A stretch of DNA of 64,000 nt from an uncultured delta proteobacterium. GTDB taxonomy: Bacteria > Desulfobacterota > Binatia > UBA9968. The stretch lies in contig CAWJZV010000018.1 of NCBI GenBank assembly GCA_963847445.1, positions 64,001 to 128,000 of the forward strand. The letters are read 5' to 3'. A program made the translations under genes and the position numbers. Numbering within the stretch: the stretch's first letter is position 1; every line of letters starts with the position of its first letter. The notes below the pieces were generated by a model, which was given only the letters and a program-made list of their open reading frames with translations, did no database searches and had not been told where the DNA came from. Below, piece after piece: positions 1-20,369 of this stretch.

Positions 1-33
1 TTGGCTGCCAGCAACAAGCAGCCGCCACAGCCC

Positions 34-156: not shown

Positions 157-179
157 TATCACCTCATCGCTCCATTCAG

Positions 180-1311
180 TTAATTGCGAATGTCCTGCAG
201 TAGCCACTCGGTCGGAAATTCCCGGCCCAAGCCGCGCTCTTTGATTAGACGATAGGTCGCGCCGCCGACTGAAGCGAACTGAATACCTTGGATCTGATTG
301 CCGCCGACTCCAAGGATTTCTTCATCATCGCGCCGGCCCGGATTGGCGCCATCGAATCAAGTCTTTGAAGCTGACTACTTTGCGCTTGTCGAAACCGCCC
401 TCCCGTTCGATCTCCGGTATGCGCGCCAAGTCCTCCGGCTGGCCAGCAACGTAGGCGCGATGATTGCCTGAAATCTTTTGCGCGCGCGACACCGCGGCGC
501 CAAATGCTTCTCCGGCGCGCGTCGGTGTTGGGCGCGAAAGTGTAAAAAGCGCGAATCCGCTCAGCGCAGGAGCGGTCGAGCTCGACACTGCCTTTCACGG
601 TGCAAACAAAAGCGCCGGCATCGACGGACGCGGCCAGGAATGACCGGCACCGTAGCATCCGTGCAGGCCGAAACGATCTGCGCGCCGTTGACAGCTGCTT
701 CAGCGGTTGCGACCGGAACCACTTCGACGCCAAGCCGCTCGGCCAACTTGTCGGCGAAGGCCTGGCGATTTGCCGGCGTCGGGCTATAGACTTGGACTCG
801 TTTGATCCGCCGGACTTCGGCGAAGGCCAACGCATGGGTCCAGGCCATGCCGCCCGAGCCGATCATGCCGACAGTGTCAGCGGCCGCACTCGACAAATAC
901 TTGGCCGCGATGCCGGCGGTGGCGCCGACTCGTAGGTGCTGCAAGTAGCCGTCGTTCATGATCGCCAGCGGCTCGCCGTTCTCGGTGCTGAATAGCAGAA
1001 TCAGACCGCAGAACAGTCCTGGCCGTTGGCAATATTTCTCTTGGGTTTTGACGCCACCGCGTTGGTCGACCAGTAGGCGATGTCGGACTTTATCCGGGTG
1101 GCAAATACCCCATAACGCCGGCTCGTTCCTTCCATCGAGCCCCACTGATAATAGCCCTGCGGATCGCCTGACGGCGCCCAGACATCGATCCGCGGCCGGC
1201 AGAGTGGCATCGCCGCGATAATACTCTTTGACTCCCTTCCTCGATGGCATCGAGACAGGTCTTCATGTCGAGCACCTGCTCGATATCCTGGTTACTGATG
1301 AGGAGAGCCAT
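180..1311 (-). CDS. Ornithine cyclodeaminase / mu-crystallin family protein (frameshifted)
   Basis: Joined frames: MALLISNQDIEQVLDMKTCLDAIEEG..., GEPLAIMNDGYLQHLRVGATAGIAAKYL, Rossmann motif GMIGSGGMA, C-terminus GIQFASVGGATYRLIKERGLGREFPTEWLLQDIRN*. Confidence 0.85.
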
Positions 1312-1344
1312 GAGATCACTTGAAACTTTCGGATTCGGAGTTTT

Positions 1345-1485
1345 TCTCCCGCAAAGGCGCAAAGACGCTAAGTGACAGGCCAGAGGCCTGTCAACCCGAG
1401 CGAATGCGAGGGATCTAAGATGGATTTCTCTCTCCGTTCGAAATGACAACGTTCACCCTTTGCGCCTTGGCGCCTTTGCGGGAGA
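1345..1485. repeat. Nested REP-like palindromes (9-mer-period outer arms, TGTCA...TGACA inner hairpin)
   Basis: Outer arms TCTCCCGCAAAGGCGCAAAG (1345-) and CTTTGCGCCTTGGCGCCTTTGCGGGAGA (1458-1485). Inner TGTCAACCCGAGCGAATGCGAGGGATCT...GAAATGACA (1389-1448). Confidence 0.75.
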
Positions 1486-1489
1486 TCTC

Positions 1490-3740
1490 CTAATTTCTTC
1501 TTCTGCATCGCCCAGTAAATTTTCTCCGCTGACAAGCGGCAGATCGAACAGCCGCACGCCGCAGGCATCGGCGATGGCATTGGCAATGGCCGCCGCCGTC
1601 GGCACGTTGGGATTCTCGGCGATCGCTTTGCCGCCATAGGGCGTCGGCCCGGTGGGGCTTTCGACCAAGACCGTCTTCAACGGCGGCACGTCGGCGATGC
1701 ACGGCAGCTTCGCTTCGCCCAAGCTCAGGGTCGCGATCTTGCCGTCCACCAGCGGATTCTCTTCCATCAGGCGCAAAGCCAAATCCGGTGACGATACCGC
1801 CTTCGATCTGCCCGGTGAGGGTCAGATGATTGAGCACCGTGCCGGTGTCGTGCGCCGTGGTTAGATTCAAGACCTTGACGCCGCCGGTGGTCGGATCGAC
1901 TTCGACCTCGGCCACTTGAGCGGCGAAGCCGGTGACTTTCGGCATATCCTTCGGAACATAATTGGTCAGGTGAAATACCGGGCCGCCGTTTTCTTTGACG
2001 GCCAGCGCGATCATCTTTTCGGTGGTCGTCGACTTCTTGTTGGGCGCCGTGAGCTTGCCGCCCTGTTGCTCAATCTCCTCGGGCTGGCAACCCAACTCGC
2101 GCGCCGCCAAGGCGACTAACTTGGCGCGCACTTCTTGCGCCGACTGGTTGACCGCGTGGCCGGAAGTGTTGGTTTGTTTGCTGCCGCCGGTGCCCGGATC
2201 GAAGGGCAAGCTGTCGGTGTCTTTGAAAACCACGCCGACTTTTTCCGGCGGCAAGCCGAGCGCCTCGCAAACCATCTGCTGGCTGACCGTGTAATATCCC
2301 GGCCCGACGTCGGGCACGCCGGTGAGAATATTCACTCTTGCCGTCCGCCTCCAGCGTCAACGCCGAGCTCGCTTTGCCTTCCGGCGTGCCGCGATCGTAG
2401 AGCGCCATGCCCCAGCCGCGATTTTTCTTGGCGCCGCCTTTTTTCCAACCGGAGGTCTTGACGATGCGCTCCAGCACTTCGCCCATGAGAATGTGGCTCC
2501 ATTTCTCACCCATGGGATTGGCGTCGCCGTCGTGCAAAATATTCTTGCGGCGCAGCTCCAGGGCGTCGATGCCCATCTCCTTGGCGATGATGTCCATCTG
2601 CGATTCGAAGGCGAACACGACCTGCGGACTGCCCGGCGTGCGCGTCTGGGTGCAAGGCACTTGATTGGTGTACGAACAAAAAGTCTGCACGTCGATGGCC
2701 GGACAGCGGTACATGCTCGCCAAACGCCGCCCGCCAAGCACGGTCACTTGCGGATTGGCCTTCTGCGAACCGTAAGCGCCGCCGCTGAAGTAAATATCGC
2801 CTTTGACCGCCAGCAGCGTGCCGTCGGCGGCGACGCCGGTCTTCACCGTGATCACCGACGGATGGCGATGGCCGCCGATCAGGATTTCCTCGCTGTAGTC
2901 GAGCACCAGTTTTACCGGCTTGCCGCCGACAGCTTTCGATAGGTAATAGGCGATCGGCACGTCGATCAACGACGCCTTGGCGCCGAAATCGCCGCCGACA
3001 TGGACGATGTGAACCTTGATCTTCTCCTGCGGCACGCCGAAGTCTTCGGCCATCTGCTCGCGCAAGCCCCAGGGCCCCTTGTTCGACGCCCACACTTCGA
3101 CCTGGCCATTGGCATGAACCTGCACCGTGCAGGCGCACGGCTCGATGTAGCCATGATGCGACAGCGGCGTGCGAAAGGTGTGTTCGAAAACCCGCGCCGC
3201 CTGAGCGAAACCGGCCTCGACATCGCCGTTCTTCCAGCGCACGTAGGATTGCAGATTATGGCCGGACATTCCTTCCGGCAGCTTCGGCGTGTTCTTATAT
3301 TTATTGCGATCCTCGTGGATCAGCGGCGCGCTCGGCTTCAGCGCTTCCACCGGATCGTCGACGTAGGGCAGCTCTTCATACTCAACGTCGATCAAACCGA
3401 TCGCTTCATCGGCAATCGCCTCGCTGTCGGCCGCCACCGCGGCGATCGCATCCCCTGCCATCCGGACCTTGTCGTAAGCCAACACCGGCTGGTCTTTCAC
3501 CCGCGTGCCGACGAAGATGTCTTTCACGTCCGCGCCGGTGAGCACCGCGCGCACGCCCTTCAACGCCTTGGCCTTCGAAGTGTCGACTTTGACGATGCGC
3601 GCGTGGGCCACCGAAGCGCGCAACACCTTCGCCCACAGCAGCCCTTCAAACGGCAAATCCGCCGCGTACTTGGTCTGCCCGGTTACTTTGCCGTACCCTT
3701 CGATGCGGGGCAGTGTTTTACCAATGGTGCGATAAGCCAC
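1490..3740 (-). CDS. Xanthine dehydrogenase/CoxL family molybdopterin-binding large subunit (frameshifted)
   Basis: GTG start after GGAGGT. Motifs KVTGQTKYAADL, HGYIEP, VGGDFGAK, AFESQMDIIAKEMGIDALELRRKN, GQIEGG, GPTPYGGKAIAE, AIANAIADACGVR. Confidence 0.9.
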
Positions 3741-3887
3741 ATGACCTCCCAGTTCTATTTTGGATTTTAGATTGCCGATTTTGGATTGCCGGATCAAGAA
3801 TCGGAAACCTACTTCGAAGACATCAACTGTCGATACGTCTTACTCCCAATCTGAAATCCTACAATGCCTATTGTCTCATGCCTCTGC

Positions 3888-4884
3888 CTACTTAATCACC
3901 CGATTCGCCCGCGAGAGAAACTCCGGCGAGAGTGTCAGTCCGATCTGTTTCGCCGCCTTCAAGTTGATGACAAACTCAAACTTCGTCGCCTGCTGCACCG
4001 GCAGATCAGCCGGCTTGGCGCCTTTCAAGATCTTGTCCACGTAAACAGCCGCGCGCCGATAGAGGTCAGTCGTAGTCCGCCCCATAGGACATGAGACCGC
4101 CCTCATCGACAAACTCCTTCTGGAAGTAAATAGCCGGCAACCGGTATTTGCCGGCAAGCTCGACGATCCGCTTTCTTTCGGCGAAAAAGGGGCGAGTGGC
4201 GGTCGTCATAATCGCGCCCACCTGCTTCTGCTTTGCGGTTTGAAAGGCGCTCTCTAAACCTTTGGCGTCGAGTTGAGTCTCGATCTCTTCCAATTTTAGC
4301 TTCAGTGCCAGAGCCGCAGGCCTGAGCTCTTTCAGTTGGAGGTCTGATCCTACGCCGCCTCCCGGCGGCCGCAGAAGTCCAACTCGGGCGAGCTTGGGGA
4401 CCGCGTCCTTGAGTATCTCTAGCCTTTTGGTATTTAGCTCGGTCGCTAAACTCGAGAGCCCGGTGACATTGCCTCCCGGCCGCGCCAGACTGGCAACCAA
4501 ACCTGCACCCACGGGGTCCCCAGCGGTCGCCATCACGATGGGGATGGTAGTAGTCGCTTTCTTCGCCGCCAACGCCGATGGCGTCCCTGCGACCACGATC
4601 AGATCAACCTTAAGACGAACCAGGTCCGCCGCAAGCTCAGGTAGGCGCTCAGGCTTTTGCTCGGCAAATCGGTACTCGATGGTGATATTCTTTCCCTCAA
4701 TCCATCCAAGCTTGCTCAGCTCTTGCCGGAACGCCTCCACGAGGACCGCGCTACCGGAAGCAGTGCTTGCATCCAGGAAACCGATGCGGAAGATTTTCCC
4801 TGGCTGCTGCGCGTGAGCGGCGGACGCAGTAAGCGCAAGGAGCAAAGCGCCAGAGCGCTGAAGACAATAGATTTTTTTCATCAT
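3888..4884 (-). CDS. ABC transporter substrate-binding protein, COG2984/ABC_sub_bind family, copy 1
   Basis: Signal peptide, RIGFL, GLVASLARPGGNVTG, GGLMSYG, VDKILKGAKPADLPVQQATKFEFVINLK. One frameshift near 4070. Confidence 0.9.
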
Positions 4885-4948
4885 GAGATTTTCTCCCGCT
4901 GTCTTCTGACTGACTGCTGATCTCTGACTTCTGATCTCTGGCAGACTG

Positions 4949-5940
4949 TCACTTGATCACCCTATTCGCCCGCGCGAGCACCTCCGGCGGGAATCGTCAG
5001 TCCGATCTGCTTCGCCGCTTTCAAGTTGATGACGAACTCAAACTTCGTCGCCTGCTGCACCGGCAGATCAGCCGGCTTGGCGCCTTTCAAGATCTTGTCC
5101 ACGTAAACCGCGGCGCGCCGATAGAGGTCATCGAAGTCCGCCCCATAGGACATGAGGCCGCCGTCATCGACAAACTCCTTCTGAAAGTAAATAGCTGGCA
5201 ACCGGTATTTGCCGGCAAGCTCGACGATCCGCTTTCTTTCGGCGAAAAAGGGGCGAGTGGTGGTCGTCATAATCGCGCCCACCTGCTTCTGCTTCGCGGT
5301 TTGAAAGGCGCTCTCTAAACCTTTGGCGTCGGGTTGAGTCTCGATCTCCTCCAATTTCAGCTTCAGCGCCACAGCCGCAGGCCTGAGCTCTTTCAGTTGG
5401 AGGTCCCAGGATATGCTATGTCCCGACGGCCGCAGAAGTCCAACTCGGGCGAGCTTGGGGACCGCGTCCTTGAGGATCTCTAGCCTTTTGGTGTTTAGCT
5501 CGGGCGCTAAACTCGAGAGCCCGGTGACATTGCCTCCCGGCCGCGCCAAGACTGGCAACCAAACCTGCACCCACGGGGTCCCCAGCGTTCGCCATCACGA
5601 TGGGGATGGTAGTAGTCGCTTTCTTCGCCGCTAACGCCGACGGCGTCCCTGCGACCACGATCAGATCAACCTTAAGACGAACCAACTCCGCCGCAAGCTC
5701 AGGCAGGCGCTCAGTCTTTTGCTCGGCAAAACGGTACTCGATGGTGATATTCTTTCCCTCGATCCATCCAAGCTTGCGCAGCTCTTGCCGGAACGCATCC
5801 AAGAGGACCGCGATACCAGAAGCAGTGCTTGAATCCAGGAAACCTATGCGGAAGATTTTCCCCGGCTGCTGCGCGTCGGCAACGGGGACAATAATCGGAA
5901 AGACAATTGCCAGTAGCCAGAAGAGAACGGATTTCATCAT
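4949..5940 (-). CDS. ABC transporter substrate-binding protein, COG2984 family, copy 2
   Basis: Same motifs as copy 1 and a near-identical mature region. Frameshifts near 5548 and 4982. Confidence 0.9.
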
Positions 5941-5992
5941 GGACTTGTCTCCGATGTTCTTACCGACACCGAACACTGACTGCTGGCCACGC

Positions 5993-7045
5993 TCACTTGA
6001 TTACTCTGTCTGCTCGGACCAGCACATTCGGCGGGATCGTCAGGCCGATTTGCTTCGCCGCTTTCAGATTGACGACGAACTCAAACTTCATCGGTTGCTC
6101 GACTGGGAGATCGGCGGGCTTGGCGCCTTTCAAAATCTTGTCGACGAAAACGGCGGCGCGGCGTAGTAAGTCGTTCTGGTTCACGCCGTAGCTCATCAGC
6201 CCGCCATCTTCGACAAAGTTGCTTTGCGGATAAGAAGCCGGGAGACGGCTCTTTACCGCGTGTTGGGCAAGCTGGGTTCGCCTGAGTACTAATCACCGGA
6301 CCCCGCAGTACAAAAACAGCTTCAGCCCGAGCCTTAGTAGCCTCTTGGAACGCGACTCCGATATCCTTGGCGCTTAAAATGTCTAGGAATTGAAGCTGCA
6401 TTCTGAACGCCCCCGCGGCGCGTTCGGTCTCTCTCAACTGGATGCCGTTACCGGCGTTGGCTGAATTCCCAAATACCGCCAAACGGGAGAGCTTCGGCAC
6501 AATCTCTTTGAGCAGCTCTAGCCGCTTTCCCGATAAGTCCGCTACCATCGAGGACAACCCAGTGATATTCCCTCCCGGTCGCGCAAGGCTTGTCACGAAG
6601 CCGTTTCCGATGGGATCAGGATCCTGAAAAACACTATGGGGATCGTGGTGGTTGCTTCCTTGGCGGCCCGGGTATTTGTCGCACCTCCCGTAACGATCAC
6701 GTCTACCTTGAGACGCACAAGTTCGGCAGCGCGGCCAGCCTCATTTTTCTCCGCGCTTGGGGATTCAATGACGAAATTTGTTCCCTCGACGTAGCCGAGT
6801 TCGCGCAGGCCTTGTCGGAATGCGCTTAAGCTGGCCGAGTTGGCGGAAGGGTTGCTGATGCTAAAGTAGCCTATCCGGTGGACTTTCTTCGGCTGCTGAG
6901 ACTCAACCCCATCGGCCAATCCTACGAAGGCAATAACGAGGGCAGCAAGCTCCACCCATTTAGATCTGCGGCGCCGCTTTTGGATTTTCGATTGCCGATT
7001 GTCGGATTGAGAACCCAGAAACGGATTTAGCGATTTTTTGTCCAT
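5993..7045 (-). CDS. ABC transporter substrate-binding protein, COG2984 family, copy 3 (divergent)
   Basis: KKVHRIGYF, ELVRLKVDVIVTGG, SLARPGGNITGLS, ADLPVEQPMKFEFVVNLK, PPNVLVRADRVIK. Several frameshifts. Confidence 0.88.
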
Positions 7046-7086
7046 GTGCTTTTTCGTCGATTGCCTATTGCCTAGTGCTCCGTCGC

Positions 7087-8080
7087 CTACTTAATCACTC
7101 GATTCGCCCGCGAGAGAAACTCCGGCGAAAGTGTCAGTCCGATCTGTTTCGCCGCCTTCAAGTTGATGACAAACTCAAACTTCGTCGCCTGCTGCACCGG
7201 CAAATCAGCCGGTTTGGCGCCTTTCAAGATCTTGTCCACGTAAACAGCCGCGCGCCGATAGAGGTCAGTCGTAGTCCGCCCCGTAGGACATGAGACCGCC
7301 CTCATCGACAAACTCCTTCTGGAAGTAAATAGCCGGCAACCGGTATTTGCCGGCAAGCTCGACGATCCGCTTTCTTTCGGCGAAAAAGCGGCGAGTGGCG
7401 GTCGTCATAATCGCGCCCACCTGCTTCTGCTTTGCGGTTTGAAAGGCGCTCTCTAAACCTTTGGCGTCGAGTTGAGTCTCGATCTCCTCCAATTTGAGCT
7501 TCAGTGCCACAGCCGCAGGCCTGAGCTCTTTCAGTTGGAGGTCTGCTCCTGCGCCGCTCCCGGCGGCCGCAGAAGTCCAACTCGGGCGAGCTTGGGGACC
7601 GCGTCCTTGAGTATCTCTAGCCTTTTGGTATTTAGCTCGACCGCTAAACTCGAGAACCCGGTGACATTGCCTCCCGGCCGCGCCAGACTGGCAACCAAAC
7701 CTGCACCCACGGGGTCCCCAACGTTCGTCATCACGATGGGGATGGTAGTAGTCGCTTTCTTCGCCGCCAACGCCGGTGGTGCCCCTGTGACCACGATCAG
7801 ATCAACCTTAAGACGAACCAGGTCCGCCGCAAGCTCAGGTAGCGCGCTCAGGCTTTTGCTCGGCAAATCGGTACTCGATGGTGATATTCTTTCCCTCAAT
7901 CCAGCCAAGCTTGCTCAGCTCTTGCCGGAACGCCTCCACGAGGACCGCGCTACCGGAAGCAGTGCTTCCATCCAGGAAACCTATGCGGAAGATTTTCTCC
8001 GCCTGCTGCGCGTGAGCTAGTTGGACAACCGCCAGAAGCAAGGCTGTAAAGTACAGAAGAGAAGAATATTTATTTCTCAC
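7087..8080 (-). CDS. ABC transporter substrate-binding protein, COG2984 family, copy 4
   Basis: GTG start and signal peptide ending AHA-QQ. Near-identical to copy 1, including the C-terminus LTLSPEFLSRANRVIK. Frameshifted. Confidence 0.9.
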
Positions 8081-8189
8081 TGGTTTTCCCTCGACCTGGT
8101 CCGGTGCAATTTTGCTAACTTCGTACAAGTCGAGATCTACGGAACTGCGAGTGCTCGATCGAAGTTCGGGATGACAGCCGTCTTTGTTG

Positions 8190-9376
8190 TCATTCCGCGG
8201 CACCGCCGAGGAATCTCGCATCGAGATATTCGTCATCGTCAAATCGAATCGAGTTGACCGGCGCTAAGCTCAGTCCATACAGCTCCGCGCAATTGTCCCA
8301 GAGAATTTTCTTCTGGCTCTCTTTCGAGACGTTTTTCATTTCGAGAAACTCTTCGACAGCCTCCGGGAAATCCGAATCGCCGTGGGGATAATCGGTCGAG
8401 AAAACGATTTTATCGTCACCGATCAGATCGATGATCATCGGCAGTTCTTTTTCATGTTCGGTGGAGATCCAGCACTGGCGCTGGAAGTATTCGCTGGGCT
8501 TCAACTTGCCGGCAGTCGGGAAACGCCCCTTCGCCATGGCATTGTCCATGCGGTGAAGTAAAAAAGACACCCAGCCGCAGTAGCATTCAAGAAAGGCCAA
8601 TTTCAGTTTCGGATGGCGCTCGCAGACGCCGCCGCCGATGGTGTCGACCATCGCCACCATGTTTTCCAACGGATGCGACACGACATGGCGCAGCAGCAAA
8701 TTGTCGCCGAAGCGATCGCCGATCTGCGCCACTTCACCGGCCGCGGTCGCCGAGTGAAAACCGATGGGCACACCGAGTTCTTCCAAGGCCGACCACACGG
8801 AATCGAAGTAGCGCGAGTGCCAGGGCAGATTGCGCATCGGCTCCGGCCGCGCGAAGACGCCGACAAAGCCCAGCTTGCCGACGGCGCGCTGGGCTTCCTT
8901 CACCGCCTCGTTGGGATCTTGCAGCGGCAGCATGCCGACGCCTTTCAACCGCTTGGGATCGGTCTGGCAGAAATCGTAAAGCCAATTGTTATAGGCCCGC
9001 GCGATGGCCGCGGCCAGCTTTGGATCCATTTCGTCGCGCATCATGATGCCCAGGCCGATGGATGGATACAGCGCCGCGACATCGAGTCCTTCGCGGTCCA
9101 TGGCTTGAAGCTGGCTCTTGGCATCGAAACCGTTGGCCCGGTAGTCTTTGATCTCCTCGTCGATGCGCGTGGCGTCGAAGATGCCGCCGCGGTAAGCCGG
9201 CTTGTAACCCTGCAAGTATCTTGCCCTCGATCATCACCATCGCCGAGCTGCGCGCCGTCGAGCTTAAAATCTTCGGCGCCCGCTCGCGCCACTCCGGCTC
9301 CATGTACTTGTCCCACAGATTCCGCCGGCTCGCGCAGGTGCATGTCGGAATCGAGAATCTTAAAACCATCTTTCAT
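8190..9376 (-). CDS. Amidohydrolase family protein (Amidohydro_2, LigW/ACMSD-like)
   Basis: N-terminal DSDMH metal motif, AYNNWLYDFC, PIGFH, FLECYCGW, FSTDYPHGD, KILWDNCAELYGL. Frameshifts near 9215 and 9320. Confidence 0.9.
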
Positions 9377-9696
9377 GTGATCGCTCCCGTAAATTTTTGT
9401 TTCAGGAGTATCACGAGGCGGTAGCGGGATGCCAACTATGCGGGAAGCCAGATCATGTTGAGGTGCGCGGATCGTCGTAGAGGCAGGTCTAAAACCTACC
9501 CTTGCCGAGGCGGGTAAACCGAGGGCGAAACTAAAGTCCGTTGGCTCTATTCCAAAGGGCGCTGAATTCGTGGACTAAAGATCGACTCTTAATTCAGTCA
9601 TTCCGAATTGACCGTGACCCCGGTGAAAACCGGGCGTCCATCCCGATCCCCTTGAACCTGGATACCGTTTTCCAACGGTATGACGGACGCGGTCCG

Positions 9697-10629
9697 TCAC
9701 ATCAGCTCACGAATCAACGACTGTGCCACTGCCGGCGCGATTCCCAGTCGCCGCCGCGCCATCGGGCCGCCTTCGTCGAGCACCGGCTCCAGCTGATCCA
9801 AGGCGGGCAGGTCGTCGCGTTTCCAGAATAGACCTATGGCGATCTCATCGCCCCATTCGTAACCATACTTCATGGCGGCGGCGAAGTCGGTCGGATCATG
9901 CTTCTTATCCTCCAACTTGAAGGTCCGCTGTTTAAAAAAGTCATGATCGTTTTCGAGATTGAAGGTCACGCAGGGACTGAACGCGTCGATCAGCGAGAAG
10001 CCGCGGTGTTGAATGCCGCCCTTGATGAGCTCGACCATATGTTTCACCTGCCCGGTGTACGCCCTGGCGACATAGGTCGCGCCGGCGGCGATCGCCAGCG
10101 GGATCGGATTGATCGGATTCTCCACGCTGCCCGCCGGCGTGCTCTTGGTTTTCATTCCCTTGGTGCTGGTTGGCGAGATCTGGCCGGTCGTCAGCCCATA
10201 AACCTGATTGTTCATCACGATATAAGTGAGATCGACGTTGCGCCGCATCGAGTGCACGAAATGGTTGCCGCCGATGCCGTAGCCGTCGCCGTCGCCGCCG
10301 GTGACGATGATCTTGAGTTCATGATTGGCCATCTGCGCGCCGGTGGCGACTGACAGCGCGCGGCCGTGCAAAGTATGCATGCCGTAGGTGCTGATATAGC
10401 CGGGCAGATTCGATGAGCAGCCGATGCCGCTGATCACCATCGCCTGGTGCGGACGAATACCCAGCTCCGCGAGCGCCTGCTTCAACGCGACCAGCACGCC
10501 AAAGTCGCCGCAGCCCGGGCACCAATCCGGTTCGGCCTTGCCTTTGAAATCCTTGACCGTCAACGGCAAGTTCGCCCGCGGCGGCACAGCAGCCTTAGAT
10601 TCAAGTTCGACCGTAGATAATGTCATCAT
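9697..10629 (-). CDS. korB: 2-oxoacid:ferredoxin oxidoreductase subunit beta
   Basis: WCPGCGD, GIGCS, HGRAL, TPP motif GGDGD...NN, YGLTTGQISPT, FSPCVTFN. Confidence 0.93.
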   Translation of the reverse strand: MMTLSTVELESKAAVPPRANLPLTVKDFKGKAEPDWCPGCGDFGVLVALKQALAELGIRPHQAMVISGIGCSSNLPGYISTYGMHTLHGRALSVATGAQMANHELKIIVTGGDGDGYGIGGNHFVHSMRRNVDLTYIVMNNQVYGLTTGQISPTSTKGMKTKSTPAGSVENPINPIPLAIAAGATYVARAYTGQVKHMVELIKGGIQHRGFSLIDAFSPCVTFNLENDHDFFKQRTFKLEDKKHDPTDFAAAMKYGYEWGDEIAIGLFWKRDDLPALDQLEPVLDEGGPMARRRLGIAPAVAQSLIRELM

Positions 10630-10687
10630 TCGCTCCTTTATCTTGTTGGTCCTTCAAGCGTTCCCGTGAAGCGCGGATCGGAAAGTG

Positions 10688-10773
10688 CACCGCCGAGGCG
10701 CGGAGTACGCGGAGTCAAGAGATTTTGAATCAGGAATTTTCCGAACTCTGCGAACTCTGTGCCTCTGCGGTGA
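10688..10773. repeat. 9-mer-period intergenic palindrome (CACCGCCGAGGCGCGGAG family)
   Basis: CACCGCCGAGGCGCGGAGTACGCGGAG ... CTCTGCGAACTCTGTGCCTCTGCGGTG. Second copy at 13016-13100, so the two copies flank korA-GYD. Confidence 0.8.
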
Positions 10774-10828
10774 ATCCTTCTTCACATGATACACGAGACT
10801 CGAAACATTCGTTCGTCAAACCATAATT

Positions 10829-12610
10829 TCATGCACCGGCACATATTGCTTCGTTGCTGCCGGCCAAAATCGCTTTCACACCATCGACGATATGATGCGG
10901 CATGAACGGTTCGCCGTCATATTTGCGAATATGACCGTCGGCGACGATGCCGGTCTCCGACCGTAAATAACGCGCGAACTGGCCGCTATAGTTGTTCTCG
11001 ACGATGATGGTTTTCTTGCTCTTTGCCAGAGTCGAAACGATCGCTTCGCCGTGCAGCGGCACGAGCCATTTGATCTGGAGCAAGATTAGCGGCGATGCCT
11101 TCCTCGTCGGCCAGCTTCTGGATCGCCTCTTGGACGACCCCTTCGGTGGAGCCCCACCCGACCAGCGTGACTTGCGCGTCAGCGGCGCCCCAGAGCTTGG
11201 GCGCGTCGAGCAGCGGCAAAATCGAATCCATCTTGCGCATGCGTTTCTCATGCATCGCCTGGCGCTTGTGCGGGTTGGTGTACTCGTCGCTGATCAACAC
11301 GCCGTCTTCATCGTGATCGTCGGTGGCGACCACATGTTCGAAACCCAGCGTGCCCGGCAGCGCGCGCGGCGAGATGCCGCTGTCGTTGATCTCATAGCGC
11401 TTGTAGCCGCCGTTGAGCGGCGGCGTGGCGCCGTTGAGGCCGATCACCTCGCCGCGTTCGATGGGCACGTTGAAGTCCAGCTCCGCCGGATCGACGCTCG
11501 ATCGGCCTTCGGAGAGCAGTAAATCTGAAAGAATGATGCCGGGACACTGAAACTTGTCGACCAGGTTGAACAGTTGCGGCACCGTATTGAAAACAATCCG
11601 GGATCGTCGTCGGCGCGACGATGATGCGCGGATAGTCGCCCTGCCCCGCGCCCATCGCCTGCCACAGATCGCCTTGTTCGGTTTTCGTCGGCACGCCGGT
11701 GGCCGGCCCGGCGCGCTGCACGTTGATACAGACCACGGGAATTTCCATCATCGCCGCGGCGCCCAGTCCCTCGGTCATCAAAGCGAATCCGCCGCCGGAG
11801 GTCGCGCACATGGCGCGGCAGCCGGCGTGGGCCGCGCCGATGGCCATATTGATGACGCCGATCTCGTCCTCCACTTGGCGCACCATGATGTCCAATTGGC
11901 GCGCGTGGCGCGCCATCCAGTGGAGCACGCCGGACGACGGGCTCATCGGATAGGCGCAGTAAAAGCGCACTCCCGCCGCCGCGCCGCCCATGGCCAACGC
12001 CTGGTTGCCTTCGAAGAACGCCAGTTTTTTGCCGGTATCCGGCAGCGTGACCGGCAAGCGCTTTGAACTGCGCCGCCGCGTAATCGTAACCGGCGCGCGC
12101 CACGCCGACGTTCTCGGCGATCACCGCGTCGCCTTTCCGTTTGAACTGCAAGCTGAGTATCTCTTCGAGAATTTTGAATTCGACGCCGATCAGCCGCAGC
12201 ACTGCGGCCAAGGCAATCGTATTCTGCACCAAGTCGCCTCGGACCGCCGGCGCCAGTTCCTTCACCGAGAAGCCGCAAAGCTGAACCCCGGCCGCGGCGC
12301 CGTCAGGTTTGATCTTGTCCTTGTTGTAAAGCACGGAAGAGCCCGGCGTCATCAAGCCGAGATGGCGATTCATGGTATCTTGATTGAGCGCGATTAAAAC
12401 ATCGAGCTTGTCGCCGAAGCTCAGCACCGGCGCGTCGCTGGTGCGCAAGGTGAGAAATATATGACCGCCGCGCACGATCGACTGATAAGCATTGTAGGCG
12501 TTTAGATGCAGCCCGCGGCGCACGAAGATGCGCGCCAGGATATCGCCGGGCGTGGCGATGCCCTGGCCGGCTGCGCCGCCGATTGCGATGGAAAGATCGA
12601 CTTTCGCCAT
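10829..12610 (-). CDS. korA: 2-oxoacid:ferredoxin oxidoreductase subunit alpha (gamma-alpha fusion; frameshifted)
   Basis: GGAAGQG, QSIVRGG, GNQALAMG, YPMSPSS, QVEDEI, ATSGGGFALM, QRAGPATGVPTKTEQGD, GWGST, VENNYSGQ. Confidence 0.92.
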
Positions 12611-12643
12611 ACTCAAGACCTCCTCTGGCCGGTTGTTAAGCCT

Positions 12644-12961
12644 TCATTTGGTCGCAGTCACCTCGGTTGCCGGAAGCATTGCGACAATCTTGCTCATTTC
12701 ACTGACGGAAAAGGCTCTCAGTGTCTGCGTGCGGATATTACCGAGAGACGCCATGCTCATGGCGAACGCCGTCATCGTCTCATCGTCCGGCGCATCGGCG
12801 GTAAACACTGCGTCAAATGCGCCCATGGTCCAGTAAATATCTTTGACCTTGATGCCAAGATTAGCCGCCGCATTGACTAGCCCTTTGGCGCGCTCGGTGG
12901 TGTGGCGGATATGACGCGCGCCTTCCTCGGTAAAGTTTACCAGCGAAACATAAGTCGCCAT
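12644..12961 (-). CDS. GYD domain-containing protein
   Basis: MATYVSLVNFTEEG...YWTMGAFDAV...SLGNIRTQTLRAFS is the characteristic GYD-family pattern. Confidence 0.85.
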   Translation of the reverse strand: MATYVSLVNFTEEGARHIRHTTERAKGLVNAAANLGIKVKDIYWTMGAFDAVFTADAPDDETMTAFAMSMASLGNIRTQTLRAFSVSEMSKIVAMLPATEVTATK

Positions 12962-13015
12962 CGAAACCTCTCGGCCGCTTGGTCTAATCAAAGAGTCTTC
13001 AGGCTTCCGTGTAAT

Positions 13016-13100
13016 CACCGCCGAGGCGCGGAGGACGCGAAGTAAAGAGAATTTGCTTAGAAATTACTCCGAACTCTGTGAACTCTGTGCCTCTGTGGTG
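13016..13100. repeat. 9-mer-period intergenic palindrome, second copy
   Basis: CACCGCCGAGGCGCGGAGGACGCGAAG ... CTCTGTGAACTCTGTGCCTCTGTGGTG, homologous to 10688-10773. Confidence 0.8.
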
Positions 13101-13136
13101 AATAGTCTTTCTCAGCAAACCCAAAACGAGCCAAAT

Positions 13137-13185
13137 AAAAAAGCCGGTCTGCTCCCGCGACATATCGCAAAAGCAACCGGCTTTT
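13137..13185 (-). terminator. Long hairpin with U-tract upstream of the GYD-korAB operon (terminator or attenuator candidate)
   Basis: AAAAGCCGGT...GCGA-CATA-TCGC...ACCGGCTTTT, followed by a T-run on the minus strand. Confidence 0.5.
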
Positions 13186-13361
13186 AGCCACCTATTTCCC
13201 CGCTAAATATCAAGCCGCGCTCCTTGCACTGCTGCTCTGAATCGCGAGAGATCGTCAAAGTTGAGGAAATCTTGTTGTGATGAGACAACTACCAACGCCC
13301 CTCGCCACTGTCAAGCTATTCTTTGTAACGATCGGTTGTCTTCAAAGACGTTTAAAAAAAC

Positions 13362-13433
13362 AAATCCCTCTAAATCTCCCTTTACAAAGGGAGACTTTCC
13401 ATTCCCCTTTGAAAAAGGGGGAATGGAGAATTT
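13362..13433. repeat. CCCTTT-N-AAAGGG type palindromic repeat
   Basis: AAATCCCTCTAAATCTCCCTTTACAAAGGGAGA ... TTCCCCTTTGAAAAAGGGGGAATGGAGAATTT. Same half-unit as 37017-37098. Confidence 0.7.
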
Positions 13434-13606
13434 GTCCACACCACCACCGATACCGTTGCCGTATTGCTGCGCAGCCACGGTGCTACACGAAACCATGGAA
13501 TCCACCGGCGAACTCTTGTACTTTAGCTGCGATTCGGATTAATTCTGTCACTTTGCGGCGAGCGTTCAAAATAGCGTTCATTCAGTTTGACGCGATCGGA
13601 GGCAGC

Positions 13607-14717
13607 ATGTTCGATTTTCTTTTCCCCACTCATCCATTCGGCGGCCACACGCTGCGCCTGGTTGCGCAAGCGCAGCAAGGCGGCGGCGATGTCTTCGATA
13701 TCGCCCGGGCGATGAAGAACGTCGAAGCCGGCGACAAGGACAGCTGGGAGCGCGAGTGGCTGGCCATGGCTGAGAAGACTGAAGCGCGCGCCCACGGCGC
13801 ATTGGCGGCCGGCCATCAAGGCACGGCGCGGCAGAATTTTTTTCACGCCAGCAATTACTATCGGATGTCCGACGTGCTCCTGACCAGCGCCGAGGAAAGC
13901 AAACGCGGCGAGCGCTTTCGCCAGTCCCAGGCAATGTTTCGCGCCGCCGCTAAACTCAATTCGCCCAAGATCGAAGTGATTTCAGTGCGCTGCGGCAATG
14001 AACAGTACGACGGTTACTTCTGCCATCCCGTGAGTCCCAAGCCAGGCAAATGGCCGGCGGTACTGTTTCTCGGCGGCGCCGACGCCTACGCCGAAGAGAT
14101 TTATTTCGGCGGCAAGCAGATGCTCGAGCGCGGCTGGGCGATGCTCTTGGTCGACACGCCGGGACGCGGCTCGTCGATGTACCTGAAAGGCATCAAGACC
14201 CGGCCCGATTACGAAGTGCCCGGCAAGGCTTGCATCGATTATTTAGTCTCGCGGCCGGAAGTCGACGCCAACCGCGTCGCGCTCCTTGGCATCAGCATGG
14301 CCGGTTATTACGCGCCGCGCGTGGCGGCCTTCGAAAAGCGCCTGCGGGCACTGGTCGCCTGGAGCGGCTGCTACAGCATCTTGGACGATCTCTATGACTG
14401 GTGTGTGCACCTCCAACCGGTCTGTCAACGTCTGCTCGGCGGCGTCAGCCACGAAGAGGCGCGCCGGCAATTGAAAGACTTCACCATGGCCGGCATGCGC
14501 CAAGAACATCACCTGCCCGACGCTGATTACCCACGGCGACAAGGACACGCTGATGTCCGTCGAAGGCGCGAAGAAGTTGTTCAACGAAATCGGCGCCACT
14601 GATAAAACCTTAAAAATTTACGGCGAAGCCGACGGCGGCGGGCGGATTCACTGCAGCCACGACTACTGGGCGCATAACTTGCCGTACATGTTGGATTGGT
14701 TGGAAGAGCGGCTGTGA
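13607..14717 (+). CDS. Alpha/beta hydrolase (2,6-dihydroxypseudooxynicotine hydrolase / FrsA-like)
   Basis: GGAGG RBS, HASNYYR, GGAD, VDTPGRG, nucleophile GISMAGYYAPR, HGDKD, HC near the C-terminus. Frameshift near 14495. Confidence 0.88.
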
Positions 14718-14737
14718 GAAAATTGGAGTATCAGAGT

Positions 14738-14870
14738 GTTTAAAATCAGTTCAACCGATGCGTTCCGATTCAATCCCCCGTCCGATCCTCCCCCGCGACG
14801 CGGGGGAGGACAGAGGTAGGGGGCTTGAACGCATCGTACGTTTCGAACGTTTTGAAACGGATTGAACGGT
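14738..14870. repeat. Nested palindrome: GTTCAA/TTGAAC outer repeats around a CCTCCCCCGC-GCGGGGGAGG hairpin
   Basis: Inner CCTCCCCCGCGACGCGGGGGAGG at about 14787-14809. Outer gttcaa/attcaa faces ttgaacg/tcgaacg/ttgaacgg. Confidence 0.6.
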
Positions 14871-14893
14871 CAATGCAAAGGAGAATTATTGCA

Positions 14894-16398
14894 ATGGCAA
14901 ACAACGGACAAGACTCAATTGGGACAAAGAAGTCGACGTGCTCGTTGTCGGCTACGGCGCCGCGGGTGGCATCGCGGCGATCACCGCCCACGACGCCGGT
15001 GCGAAGGTTTTATTGATCGAAAAAATGCCCCACCCCGGCGGCATCTCGATTCTCTCCGGCGGCGGCGTCGCCTTCGCGCATAACGCCGAGGGGGCCTTTC
15101 AATATTTAAAACGCACCTGCAACGGCACCACGCCGGACGACATTCTGCGCAAGATGGCCGAAGAGATGGTCGGCATGATCGACTGGGTCACCGAACTCGC
15201 CAAAGTCAGCGGCACCGAGCCGTCTAAGACCGAGACCCGCGGCCATGGCACCTATCCATTTGCTGGCACCAACGACATTGATTCGATCAAGCTCAAAGAC
15301 TTCCAAGCCTACGACGAATTCCCCTGGGCCAAAGGACTGCGCGGCGGCGCCCGGCTGTTCAAAGTCGTCTACGACAACGTCAACAGCCGCAACATCGAAG
15401 TGCTGCTCTCGACGCCGGCGAAAGAATTGATTTTGAATAGCGACGGCGAAGTGATCGGCCTGGTCGCCGAGCATGACGGCAAGACGATTCGTATCAAGGC
15501 GAATAAGGGCGTCATTCTGTGCTGCGGCGGCTACGAAAACGACGACGCCCTGAAGCTGCAATACTTCGAAGCCCAGCCGGTCTATCCGGTCTACCTCGGC
15601 AACACCGGCGACGGCTTGAAGATGGCGCAAAAAGCCGGCGCCGGCCTCTGGCATATGTGGCATTTTCACGGCGGCTACGGCTTTAAGTTTGCCGAGCTGC
15701 CCTTCGCCATCCGCCATGTCTGGGCCGGACCGAGAAACGAGAACCGCAAGATGATTTGGATCGGCGTCGACAAATCTGGCAAGCGCTTCATGGACGAGTA
15801 CCCGCCGGCGCCTCAGGACACCGGCACCCGGGCGCTGGAATACTACGATGCCGACATCCAGGACTATCCGCGCATCCCTTGCTATCTGATCTTCGACGAG
15901 GAAGGCAGAAAGCTCGGCCCCATCGGCATCCCGATCGTCAACGACGAGCGCTATGACGCCAGCTGGAGCGCGGACAATCTCGCCGAGATCGACAAAGGCT
16001 GGATCAAAAAAGGCAACTCGCTGGAAGACATCGCGGCGCAGATCGACGTCAATCCCAAAGTGCTCAGAGCCACGGTGGAACGGTGGAACGACCTCTGCGC
16101 CAAAGGCCAGGACGAAGATCACAAACGGCCGCCGAAAACCATGATGCCGATCAAGACCGGCCCGTTCTACGTCATGGAGGCCTGGCCCATCGTCAATAAT
16201 ACTCAGGGTGGCCCCGAGCACGACGTCAAGCAGCGCGTGTTAGACCCGATGAAACGACCCATCCCACGCCTCTACGTCGCCGGCGAGATCAGCTCGATTT
16301 ACGGCCATTTGTATTTGGAAGCGGGCAACATCACCGAATGCTTCGTCGCGGGGAAGATCGCCGGGCAGAATGCCGCGGCGGAGCAAGCGTGGTCCTGA
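14894..16398 (+). CDS. FAD-dependent oxidoreductase, FAD_binding_2 family (KstD / fumarate reductase flavoprotein-like)
   Basis: WDKEVDVLVVGYGAAG, GGISILSGG, GVILCCGGYE, NTGDG, GKRFMDE, NTQGG, IPRLYVAGE. Frameshift near the N-terminus. Confidence 0.88.
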
Positions 16399-16529
16399 GC
16401 GGTCGATTGTGAATAGAGCAGCGTGATCACGCCGCAATCGACGAAGCAAAGATTGTCGTCACCACGAAGGCACGAAGAGCACGAAGTTCGGAATTTTAAT
16501 CATCCGAAACCTTCGTGTCCTTCGTGCCT

Positions 16530-16742
16530 CCTTAGAAAATACATTCAAGGGGAGGGTCTCCACACAATGAAGAGGTCACCTGGATTCCGTCATACCCGCG
16601 AAAGCGGGTATCCAGGCTAATTGGGCGCAGAACAAACCTGGATTCCTTCGCGTGCGCGGGAATGACGAATCGATGAGGGGATCATGTTCTGGGAGTGCCA
16701 ACCATTTTCATGCTCTGTAGGCGAGCGCAAGCTCATGAAACA
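16530..16742. mobile_element. Putative non-autonomous insertion element (CCTTAGAAAATAC...CATGAAACA) flanked by CT, inside a host palindrome
   Basis: Interrupts the right arm of the CACCACGAAG palindrome (16460-16752). CT at 16528-29 and 16743-44. Same ends as 19486-19670. Carries a CGTCAT...ATGACG hairpin at 16588-16667. Confidence 0.6.
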
Positions 16743-16811
16743 CTTCGTGGTGGAAAATGATGTTATCAATAAGCAGATTCGTTTCGACCGCAGCTACTGT
16801 CGTTTAAACTT

Positions 16812-17970
16812 TTAAAAATAGCGCCACAGCCACCATTTCTCGAAGCCGAGCTTCGCCCAGTAGATCGCCCTAGACGGCCCCCATGTGCGCGGATCGGTGA
16901 CACCGAAGGGCGGCCAGCCGGTGGGATACGTCGTTCGGTTTGCGGCGGCGCGTCCAGCGCCGAAGGCGAGTAGTCATATGGTGTGCAGCCAGAGGTCTAC
17001 GGGTCGTGCCCTTGCCGGTGATCTCGACGGCGAGATTATGCGCCAGCACATCCGCTTCCTGATGGGCGACGCCGCCGGCCTTGGACGCCGGCAGGTCGGC
17101 GCAATCGCCGATGGCGTAAACATTGTCCCATTTGGTTTGCAGCGTGTCGTAGTCGACGCGGATGCCGGTTTCGCTCTCGGCCAGACCGCTATCGAGCAGC
17201 ACTTGCGCCGGCCGGTGCGGCGGCACCATGACCAGCAGATCGTAGGGAATGTTGTAATTGTACAGACCCTGGACGACCTTTTTCTCCGGTTCGATGGAAC
17301 GCACGACAAACTCGTAGTGCTGCTCGATGCCGCGCCGTTTGCTTTCGGCATTCATCCACACCGCCGGATCGTGAGCTTCGCCGGTCGGTTCCGCCTCGCG
17401 GGTGAAGTAGTCGATCTGAACCCGGTCGCGAATCCCCTTTTGACGGAAATATCCATCGAGCATCCACTGCGCTTCATAGGGCGCCGGCGGGCATCGGTAT
17501 GGCCCGAGCGGCACACCGACGACTACCCTGCCGCCGCGAAACGACTCCAGGCTCGCGCGCAAACGCAGCGCTGATTCCATTTCCCAGGGGTGCTGCGACC
17601 CTTCGGCAAAGCCCGGAACCAAGTCGGGACGGGTTTGCAGGCCGAGCGAAGTGATCAAGTAGTCGTAGTTGATCTTTTCTTTTTCCAGCGAAATTTCCTG
17701 GCGGATCGGATCGATGCCGAGAATCTCCGACTGAATGACTCTGACGTTGCGCTTCTCGATTACTTTCAAATTCCGGCTGATATCGCGCGGTTGGCGCTCG
17801 CCGATCATGATGAACAGAAACGCCGGCATGAAAATATGATCGGCGCGCCGGTCGATTAGAATGACATCGTGATCGGCGCCGAGCTTGCGGCCCAAATGCG
17901 TCGCCGCCACCACGCCGCCGCAGCCGCCGCCTAAAATGACAATTTTCTTTCGTCGCGATAGAAGTTGCAT
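16812..17970 (-). CDS. Sulfide:quinone reductase-like NAD(P)/FAD oxidoreductase, probable selenoprotein (UGA at 16974-16976)
   Basis: ILGGGCGG, YRCPPAPYE, VYAIGDC, KAGGVAH. After a 1-bp indel near 17000 the frame reads LWLHTI-UGA-LLAFGAGRAA...PSRAIYWAKLGFEKWWLWRYF-TAA. Confidence 0.85.
16946..16962 (-). promoter_or_regulatory. Bacterial SECIS-like stem-loop
   Basis: mRNA CGGCGC-UGGAC-GCGCCG is a perfect 6-bp stem with a G-containing loop, starting 11 nt after the in-frame UGA. Confidence 0.7.
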
Positions 17971-17994
17971 GTTGAGTTCTTGGTTTCGCGAAGT

Positions 17995-18180
17995 CTATTT
18001 ATCTTGAGCGCCGAAGCGCTGTTTTGAGCGTTGCGCCAGTCCCTGGAGATTTCTCAGCCGCTGCTCGCGCCAGAGTTGTTGCTCGCGCCTGCCGTCGGCG
18101 TTGAGTTCCTTGCCAAAGCCGGATGATGCCCGCAAGAACCAGATGATTAAAGTATCAGATAGATCTTTTAGCCATTCCAT
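17995..18180 (-). CDS. Small hypothetical protein (61 aa)
   Basis: GGAG RBS upstream; fills the gap between the DHDPS-family and SQR-like genes on the same strand. Confidence 0.55.
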   Translation of the reverse strand: MEWLKDLSDTLIIWFLRASSGFGKELNADGRREQQLWREQRLRNLQGLAQRSKQRFGAQDK

Positions 18181-18241
18181 ACATTTCTCCGCCTCACGCT
18201 CCGGCTTTGCTTAACCCAGCGTTTGGTGACTGCGTTTGAGC

Positions 18242-19210
18242 TTATCTTAAGAAGGTATCTTCTTGCCGGAGCTTTTCGCCGGCGGCGAGTAGCCCCTGCG
18301 GCGACGGCCCCGATTCACCGATCAGACCGACCTGGCGCAAGAACTGGCCGATCTGCTCATGGTCGCGCGGGCTCACCGGCGCATAAGGCCGGCAGGGCTG
18401 GCCGAGATCGACACCGAAATGTTTCATCGCCGACTTCATCACCGGCGGCAAACCATAGGCGCCCCATTTCCCGGGAAATAAGGCGTAGCAGCGCGCCCAG
18501 AATCTGGCCGTCTCCAGATCGCCGGCGCGAAACGCCTTGACGATCTGCGCGCCGATGCGCGTCCCCGGCGGCGGCATGGTGGCGCCGGAGCCGCCGAGCA
18601 TGAGCGTGACCAGGAGCGGCTGCATGGTGGTAAAATAGTGACCGCGGCCGGCCAGCTCGATCTGCTCGATCAAACGCGAGATCTTGGTGATGTCGCGGGA
18701 GCTTTCTTTGAAGTAGCGAATATTATCGATCTCGCTGATCTTGACGAAGGCATCCTGCGGCGGATCGGCGCCCGGACCGGGATTGTGATAACAGGTGACC
18801 GGCAACGGACTCGCCGAGGCGACTTGAGTGTAAAACTCCATCAGCTCGGCGATGGTCGGCTGGCCGCCCCAGGGACGCAGCGGCATCAGCACTTGAATGA
18901 AGTCGCCGTTCACCTTGGCGGCATACTCGGCGAGTTCAATAACCTCGCGCGGCGCCGGACTGGAGCAGCCCAAGATCACCGGCACCCGGCCGCCGATCAT
19001 TTCGGTGGCGACTTTGAGCACTTCCTTGCGCTCATCGCGCGACAGCATGGTGTATTCCGCCGCTTCCACCGCCGCCACCGTGATCGCGTCGCAGTCGGGA
19101 ATAAGAAATTCGATTTCCTTTTCGAGCGCCTTGTAATCGACGCGATCATTCACGTCGAAGGGCGTCAAACAGGCGCCAATGATGCCGCTGATAGGTTTGG
19201 TCGTTGCCAT
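18242..19210 (-). CDS. Dihydrodipicolinate synthase / class I aldolase family protein
   Basis: GIIGACLTPFD, LSRDERKEVL, GRVPVILG, CYHNP, Schiff-base lysine YFKESS. Confidence 0.88.
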   Translation of the reverse strand: MATTKPISGIIGACLTPFDVNDRVDYKALEKEIEFLIPDCDAITVAAVEAAEYTMLSRDERKEVLKVATEMIGGRVPVILGCSSPAPREVIELAEYAAKVNGDFIQVLMPLRPWGGQPTIAELMEFYTQVASASPLPVTCYHNPGPGADPPQDAFVKISEIDNIRYFKESSRDITKISRLIEQIELAGRGHYFTTMQPLLVTLMLGGSGATMPPPGTRIGAQIVKAFRAGDLETARFWARCYALFPGKWGAYGLPPVMKSAMKHFGVDLGQPCRPYAPVSPRDHEQIGQFLRQVGLIGESGPSPQGLLAAGEKLRQEDTFLR

Positions 19211-19379
19211 AGGCTTATGGAGTTCTTTAGCTATTTGGTTCTTTTGTGGGTTCAGATTGTTTTGTTCACCACGAAGGCACACAGGGTTCGATAATTTAAT
19301 TTCTGAACTTCGTGCTCTTCGTACTACTATCCTTGATAATTTGCGGGGTTTGCGCAAATGGTGCGAGCGTCAAATCCAA

Positions 19380-19405
19380 GAGGGCGGGTTTAAACCCGCC
19401 CCTAC
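19380..19405 (-). repeat. GTAG-family REP palindrome
   Basis: Minus strand GTAGGGGCGGGTTTAAACCCGCCCTC. A degenerate copy GTAGAGGCAGGTCTAAAACCTACCCT lies at 9477-9502. Confidence 0.7.
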
Positions 19406-19485
19406 CCATGCCGATTCTTTTTTGCGCCCTTGCGTTCATTGCGGCCATTCTTCTTGTCGGTTGCGGCTTTGCCACGCTATGTCCT

Positions 19486-19670
19486 CCTTAGAAAATACAC
19501 GTGCAGCGATGATCTGGGCATCGATAACGACTCTCTGTTCCGTCATACCGGCGCAGGCCGGTATCCATCCCCTTCCGCCCCTGGATGCCGGCCTGCGCCG
19601 GCATGACGAGTCTAAGGAATGGCTTCCCGGTATTTTCATTATCTGTGGGCGTGCGTAAGACCATGATTCA
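19486..19670. mobile_element. Second copy of the CT-flanked CCTTAGAAAATAC...CATGATTCA element
   Basis: CT at 19484-85 and 19671-72. Inside a host palindrome beginning CACCACGAAGGCAC at 19267. Internal CGTCAT...ATGACG hairpin at 19541-19608. Confidence 0.6.
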
Positions 19671-19711
19671 CTTCGTGGTAAAATCGTTTTCACAGTAACC
19701 CTGCGACACTG

Positions 19712-20369
19712 CTAATTTAAGACTTCCGCGACGATGCGCGCATGGCCGGCATCGCTGCCTTTGACCCGCAGCGGCAGCGCCATGATGCGCGTGCGCTTGC
19801 CGACGCACCGCAGCCAAATTGGTGACGTTCTCGGCGATGAGAACGTCATTACCCAACAAAGTTCGATGCACCGGAAAATCGAACCCCTTGGGCCGCAGCG
19901 GCGTCGGCAGGTCGACGGTGATGCAGTCGATGCCGAACATTTTAATGCCCTTCTTGACCATCCACTCGGCGGCGTCGACGGAAAGATAAGGATGCAGATT
20001 GTAATCCGGGCTGTCGAACTTCTCGTCCCAGCCGGTGTGGAGCATGAGGATATCGCCGCGATTGACCGTGACGCCGGAGGCTTCTAAATCTTTTGCCGTC
20101 ACCTCTTCGCCGCCGTTCTTCTTGACGCTGATCACCGCGCCGGTGCCGACGAAGGCATCCACCGGCAACTCGTCAATCGATTTGCCGTTGGGCATTATAT
20201 GGATCGGCGCGTCGACATGGGTGCCAGCGTGACAGGGCATCGACAACTCAGTGACGTTCAAGGGATGGCCTTTGTCCAGGCTCAAAAACTTCGTCACGTG
20301 GACTTCCGGCAGGATCGGAATCTTCGGCATGCCGTCGTAAATCACCCGTGACAAATCGATCATTTCCAT
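19712..20369 (-). CDS. Cyclase family (kynurenine formamidase-like) metal-dependent hydrolase
   Basis: HAGTHVDAPIH motif, GDILMLHTGW, GIDCITVD, VHRTLL, IAENVTNL. Frameshift near 19812. Confidence 0.9.

Follow-up and report, generated by a model that had tools for sequence, protein, structure and literature searches.

The window, the whole 64,000-nt stretch of DNA analysed here, carries on its minus strand a complete gene for a flavoprotein resembling the sulfide:quinone oxidoreductases (SQRs). From its ATG the gene is read in frame 0 as far as the residues ..EITGKG; it then continues in the +1 frame as PVDLWLHTI-TGA-LLAFGAGRAA...WWLWRYF-TAA. Once one extra base private to this assembly is discounted, the predicted product has 385 residues, as do the orthologues in relatives. 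The TGA within this frame is a putative selenocysteine (Sec) codon. The features of the locus are:

16812..17970, minus strand: complete gene for the SQR-like flavoprotein (ATG at 17970, TAA at 16814-16812)
17491..17493, minus strand: codon of Cys160 in a CPPAPYE motif, the first redox cysteine; invariant column, aligned with a cysteine of human SQOR
17006..17008, minus strand: extra base, its exact place ambiguous among these three; shifts the frame in this assembly only
16974..16976, minus strand: in-frame TGA, putative Sec codon, residue 332 of the corrected protein; invariant in relatives and aligned with Cys
16815..16973, minus strand: 53 codons 3' of the TGA, with a G-A-G-R-A segment and a Trp/Phe-rich C-terminal tail
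16946..16962, minus strand: SECIS-like hairpin, 6-bp GC stem and 5-nt loop N-G-G-N-C (RNAalifold consensus)
17995..18180, minus strand: conserved 61-residue open reading frame directly upstream, found in relatives by tblastn; no Pfam match

The initial annotation had corrected one indel near 17000 and had read the UGA and a family-typical C-terminus in a single frame, with a CPxAPYE motif upstream and a perfect hairpin beginning 11 nt past the UGA. All of these elements lie where it placed them: the motif is present as CPPAPYE, with its Cys codon at 17493-17491, and the hairpin, of 6 bp and with the loop UGGAC, occupies 16962-16946. One small point is corrected: the residue at the repaired position is Arg in relatives (GKG-R-PVD) and not Thr (GKG-T-PVD).

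The protein contains two Pfam domains, each scoring over its cut-off: Pyr_redox_2 (PF07992, 74.3 bits) and FCSD_central (PF21706, 34.6 bits). A phmmer search against solved structures matches SQRs with E-values of 2.8e-32 to 1e-14, the best match reaching 115 bits. The alignment with Aquifex SQR spans residues 8-383, i.e. the full length. The neighbouring genes encode a DHDPS-family protein, a cyclase, a TenA/PqqC-like protein, an FAD_binding_2 oxidoreductase, and a hydrolase; no sulfur-metabolism genes were found near the gene.

Conservation of the TGA, the downstream frame and the hairpin

A DNA match to the gene is present in 53 of the 61 genomes searched, the window's own included. The relatives' loci come from three families of one order and have 67-92% DNA identity; one further locus, whose genome is flagged unpublished, was left out of the counts. 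In each of the 47 relatives' loci that cover the site, as in the window itself, the TGA is kept. Assembled contigs from three other studies agree at the TGA. DNA similarity crosses the TGA, extends up to a shared stop, and is lost beyond it. The 53-codon tail was recognised by pattern and is open in 47 of 50 loci, these 47 being the ones where the pattern matched; the remaining three are two contigs that end early and one variant tail.

The codons beyond the TGA show purifying selection, with changes mainly at third positions. Across 44 full-length genes, the numbers of variable columns at the first, second, and third codon positions are 24/14/48 of 53 after the TGA, versus 202/127/322 of 331 before it. 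At the protein level, the tail is thus constrained no less than the remainder of the gene.

The position of the TGA is also visible in the database entries. Among the best 120 of 1108 homologues (E <= 1e-20), which are 83-92% identical, the called length is exactly 331 aa, i.e. the position of the TGA, in 118; the other two differ at the N-terminus. All seven homologues fetched end in ..LHTI, at the TGA. Gene callers truncate nearly every one of these close homologues, as the initial annotation expected of this protein. Hundreds of database entries from a lineage widespread in soil, sediment, and groundwater end at residue 331, and miss the catalytic residue and the C-terminal domain.

An alternative genetic code, in which TGA would specify Trp or Gly, was ruled out. 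TGA is the commonest stop of the long open frames in the window (23 of 43), and homologues have Cys at this position; further, several relatives use TGA as the final stop of the orthologous gene. In a metatranscriptome run (X15), one contig covers 17007-17229 with one difference and then diverges. As it does not reach the TGA, this contig is silent on read-through and nearly so on expression.

The hairpin, CGGCGC-UGGAC-GCGCCG, starts 11 nt after the TGA. In the RNAalifold consensus, its stem pairs are kept in 45-47 of 47 sequences. The changes within the stem are four one-sided substitutions, all of which give G-U pairs, and a basal pair that is broken once; compensatory double changes are found in none of the 47 sequences. 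No such change is possible at this site, since every wobble base of the stem has a partner that is fixed by a Gly, Ala, or Arg codon. The variability of wobble positions was therefore compared instead. Of the 66 fourfold columns, the three with the lowest wobble entropies are the three stem sites, with values of 0 (codon 340) and 0.16 (codons 337 and 341). All other columns have at least 0.66, and codon 338, in the loop, varies freely at its wobble position (1.67). Besides the coding constraint, the stem is under one at the RNA level. The hairpin is short, at 6 bp, and its energy when a single sequence is folded is unremarkable (z = -0.35), with 62 of 200 shuffles folding at least as well. The argument for the hairpin is therefore one of conservation and not of energy. 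An Rfam scan of the window at gathering thresholds returned no match; Rfam is without a model that would catch a SECIS of this type.

In E. coli fdhF, the minimal upper stem-loop of the SECIS must sit 11 nt after the UGA. The window hairpin shares with this element its location inside the coding sequence, an equal spacing from the UGA, and G residues in the apical loop. It differs in having a shorter stem and no evident bulged U. The window hairpin may bind SelB.

The redox column and the relation to known enzymes

SQRs use two redox-active residues near the FAD, and the TGA coincides with the second of these. In a 20-sequence alignment, all 14 full-length Cys-type homologues, which are 31-39% identical, have Cys in the TGA column, and four members of the NCBIfam family NF049943, two of them Cys members, have U or C there. 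The column of Cys160 is invariant in the same alignment. Human SQOR (phmmer, E = 2.8e-32) aligns both of its active-site cysteines with the window protein, one with Cys160 and one with residue 332. We take these to be Cys201 and Cys379, with Cys379 pairing with the TGA column. The assignment of the UGA to the second redox Cys column of the SQR/FCC flavoproteins, proposed at the outset from the letters, thus holds in the Cys-type homologues, in human SQOR, and in the NF049943 column.

The nearest full-length relatives identified by an exhaustive representative search are ~380-390 aa long and 31-39% identical; one cluster at 57% identity is also cut at the TGA column. Among the 47 relatives' loci there is no Cys form. 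Because the clade is without a Cys form, the Sec/Cys pairing rests on homologues that are at most 39% identical. The 53-codon stretch that follows the TGA has its homologous counterpart in the C-terminus of the Cys-type relatives and of Aquifex SQR.

The characterised Cys-type SQRs include: human SQOR (6oi5, 8dhk); the enzymes of Acidianus ambivalens (3h8l), Aquifex aeolicus (3hyw), and Acidithiobacillus ferrooxidans (3t31); and the type III enzyme of Caldivirga maquilingensis. These share with the window protein the FAD Rossmann fold and both redox positions. They differ in several respects: they carry Cys where the window protein has the putative Sec; the crystallised chains are 409-437 aa long, as compared to 385 aa; identity is low; and the window branch is known from sequence. 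In Af and Aa SQR, the residues flanking the conserved C-terminal Cys are described as lining the quinone channel (PMC9666304). In the window protein, the corresponding positions on either side of the redox residue are the apolar Ile and Leu (I-U-L).

The initial annotation knew of no characterised Sec form of this family. Such a form is indeed biochemically uncharacterised, but it had already been predicted: a Sec-containing NAD(P)/FAD-dependent oxidoreductase was predicted by deep-Sep in two Desulfosediminicola species (Xiao and Zhang 2025, PMC12013277), and this form is covered by NF049943. A 2026 review (PMC13188914) lists a Sec type III SQR with the motif HxxU, crediting Xiao and Zhang 2025. 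A literature search combining 'Binatia' and 'selenocysteine' found no report of the window branch; the deep-Sep supplements might include this branch among listed TGA-containing homologues.

NF049943 (type III SQR, selenoprotein subtype) belongs to the same superfamily and is the best NCBIfam match of the window protein. In both, the same C-terminal redox Cys is replaced, and the Sec columns coincide in the alignment; a His stands three residues before the Sec (H-T-I-U here, H-A-T-U in the NF049943 loci L056-L058). In both, the SECIS hairpin lies inside the coding sequence downstream of the Sec codon. There are also differences. The family cut-off is 525 bits; the window open reading frame scores 245.8 bits, and a full-length orthologue with its TGA translated scores 255.2 bits. 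Identity between NF049943 members and the window protein is about 30-34%, and a C-terminal extension of ~40 residues in the members is missing from the window protein. The NF049943 proteins group by themselves in a maximum-likelihood tree (support 100/100), and the window clade lies among Cys-type proteins. The NF049943 SECIS has an 8-bp stem and a GGUC loop and begins 17 nt after the UGA; the window element has a 6-bp stem and an NGGNC loop and begins at 11 nt. Finally, NF049943 mixes Sec and Cys members, whereas the window clade has TGA in all 47 relatives examined. Because score, clade, and SECIS differ, the window protein falls outside the family as it is now delimited, although it would work in the same way as the NF049943 proteins. 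An NCBIfam scan of the 67-residue tail alone gave no match. The NF049943 model would not rescue the 331-aa database entries, because they score under its cut-off.

Two Sec/Cys switches are needed in all 200 bootstrap trees. The window branch is an independent second lineage of a kind for which the first prediction dates from 2025. With two separate Cys-to-Sec switches at one SQR site, nature offers a pair of experiments on the benefit of selenium to a persulfide-forming flavoenzyme.

In a 201-genome sample of the phylum, NF049943 scores over its cut-off in 11 genomes, of which three have TGA (..DGHAT-TGA-MVVTGYEKG..) and eight have Cys. The three Sec-type loci, L056-L058 (genomes G182, G148, and G111), place the TGA at residue 331-332. 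The Cys-type members have TGC or TGT at the codon of the Sec column.

The extra base and the selenocysteine genes

In an alignment of 30 loci, none of the 29 others has the extra base that the window carries at 17006-17008. The base is also absent from contigs ~98% identical to the window, assembled from three DNA runs of three other metagenome studies; these contigs show no difference at the TGA. This comparison uses assembled contigs and not raw reads, and none of the contigs comes from the source sample. The base is likewise scored as a private insertion against relatives G003 and G014. A programmed frameshift at this site was ruled out, as the base is absent from the 29 other loci and from the contigs of the three runs.

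The wider pattern of private changes indicates how the extra base arose. Within 1-20000 of the window, 15,040 positions could be compared with two or more same-genus relatives; they contain 13 private one-base insertions versus one deletion, and the assembly carries about one private single-base insertion per 1.2 kb. A further 3.8 kb of the same genome, covering selB and selD (contig C14:193387-197226), contains four more private one-base changes, all of which are insertions. Because this insertion bias is strong and is spread over unrelated genes, assembly error is a better account than gene decay. The frameshift in the window is most probably an inserted base peculiar to this assembly, an error and not biology. 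Other frameshifts in this genome are best regarded as likely errors too, to be checked before a biological reading is given to them.

The same genome contains genes for the selenocysteine pathway. The initial annotation had pointed to selA, selB, selC, and selD in the genome as a check on its proposal. Three of the four are found: selA, selB, and a TGA-containing selD adjoin as an operon (contig C14:191462-195942). All three are frame-broken by private insertions: selB falls into four or five frames, and one shift each is seen in selA and selD. The selD gene is itself a selenoprotein gene, because it has its own in-frame TGA near the N-terminus. An intact tRNA-Sec (selC) was not found in this 91.8% complete assembly, where Rfam reports nothing above its cut-off; at this completeness, a missing tRNA gene is weak evidence. 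In relatives, a tRNA-Sec is present in five of the five tested, at 74-78 bits versus the Rfam cut-off of 47, and selB and selD are intact in three of three.

The assembly does contain an isolated 28-32-nt 3' fragment of a tRNA-Sec (contig C12, ~77573-77604), whose flanks are unrelated. The fragment looks like the copy of a tRNA end that an integrated element leaves at one of its borders. A candidate 'tRNA-SeC' called by ARAGORN (C2:139122-139203) was set aside as doubtful: it is 82 nt long; its acceptor stem is A/U-rich and contains a mismatch; and it is dissimilar to the tRNA-Sec of relatives. A search for selC by way of the regions that flank it in relatives met with no usable synteny.

Proposed function and alternative readings

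Conservation extends to the TGA, the open frame beyond it, the hairpin, and the Cys/Sec pairing. With these features in view, the internal TGA is almost certainly read as selenocysteine in place of a catalytic Cys. The locus as a whole is very probably explained by Sec at the C-terminal redox position of a monotopic FAD flavoprotein of the SQR group, closest to type III, with the frameshift as an artefact.

If Sec is inserted here, as we infer from sequence conservation, the process likely involves: binding of SelB, with Sec-tRNA(Sec), to the GC hairpin 11 nt past the UGA; incorporation of Sec at residue 332; and continued translation for 53 residues. The last step would complete both the active site and an aromatic C-terminal tail, of the type that SQRs use for contact with membrane and quinone. 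In the folded protein, Sec332 and Cys160 would form a redox pair beside the FAD, which may pass through a selenenyl-sulfide or a bridged Se-S(n)-S species. Sulfide, the probable substrate, would be converted to sulfane sulfur, and its electrons would pass via FAD to quinone. The replacement of sulfur by selenium at this position may carry a benefit for the enzyme.

The most likely activity is sulfide:quinone oxidoreduction. This proposal follows from the FAD fold, the presence of both redox positions, the aromatic C-terminal tail, and the activity of type III SQRs, which are reported to couple sulfide oxidation to quinone reduction (PMC10205796, citing Lencina 2013). A different reaction for a genuine selenoprotein, such as selenide or polysulfide handling or another persulfide/disulfide reductase activity, is unlikely. 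In its favour, identity to characterised SQRs is low, with the best structural match at 115 bits; sulfur genes are missing from the neighbourhood; and the fixation of Sec in the clade may signal a changed chemistry. In addition, a 2023 preprint describes the oxidation of hydrogen selenide by mammalian SQOR, with reduction of ubiquinone. Against these points, both SQR redox positions, the FAD fold, and the SQR-type aromatic tail are conserved, and the nearest curated model is that of type III SQR, with its reported coupling of sulfide to quinone. One possibility that goes further would be that this branch, fixed for Sec with no Cys among 47 relatives and representing a second independent recruitment of Sec into an SQR active site, has changed its function with the residue. 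It might then oxidise sulfide at very low sulfide concentrations or under oxidative soil conditions, or have selenide or mixed Se/S species as substrates, perhaps in concert with the always-adjacent 61-residue protein. We consider this proposal quite unlikely.

The two remaining alternatives deny a functional selenoprotein in this strain or in the lineage. The frameshift lies 30 nt ahead of the TGA, selB is broken over four or five frames with one shift each in selA and selD, and tRNA-Sec is seen only as a 3' fragment; this combination would fit a strain-specific pseudogene with a real frameshift and a decaying Sec trait. Such decay is nonetheless improbable. Private one-base insertions occur throughout unrelated genes (13 versus one deletion, with four more in the sel region), which is the signature of error; the ~98% identical contigs from three other studies keep the TGA and lack the extra base; the SQR-like gene carries no lesion other than that base; and the incompleteness of the assembly weakens the argument from the absent tRNA gene. 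More improbable still is that the TGA is a genuine stop, such that the 331-residue product is active and the stretch downstream is a separate small open reading frame or a regulatory RNA. The database entries called at 331 aa (118 of the best 120) and the unremarkable fold statistics of the single sequence speak for this reading. It does not account for 53 codons that remain in the same frame in every relative, with third-position bias and a common stop, or for the homology of the tail to the C-terminus of Cys-type enzymes and solved SQRs. A 331-residue product would be without the second redox residue and the C-terminal domain, and there is no in-frame start codon between the TGA and the conserved GAGRA segment from which a separate frame could begin. 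Selenocysteine at the C-terminal redox position of an SQR-group flavoprotein is thus the reading retained here.

The 61-residue open reading frame (17995-18180) lies directly upstream of the SQR-like gene in 28 of 28 relatives' loci, with 48-95% identity (tblastn). The N-terminal half of its product is hydrophobic and the C-terminal half is charged. It is possibly a partner of the flavoprotein or a co-transcribed gene.

Upstream of this frame is the DHDPS-family gene (18242-19357, minus strand). This adjacency is kept across the order, with 67-99% protein identity. The DHDPS-family gene is far more conserved than the SQR-like gene and has no evident link to it.

The surrounding DNA also contains short interspersed repeats of ~200-300 nt, located at 16459-16755, 19483-19683, and 1343-1505; same-genus genomes contain dozens of copies. 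Metagenome contigs show these repeats at very high depth, and many contigs diverge at the repeat edges. The copy just downstream of the SQR-like gene is a private insertion (16530-16744) present in this genome only.
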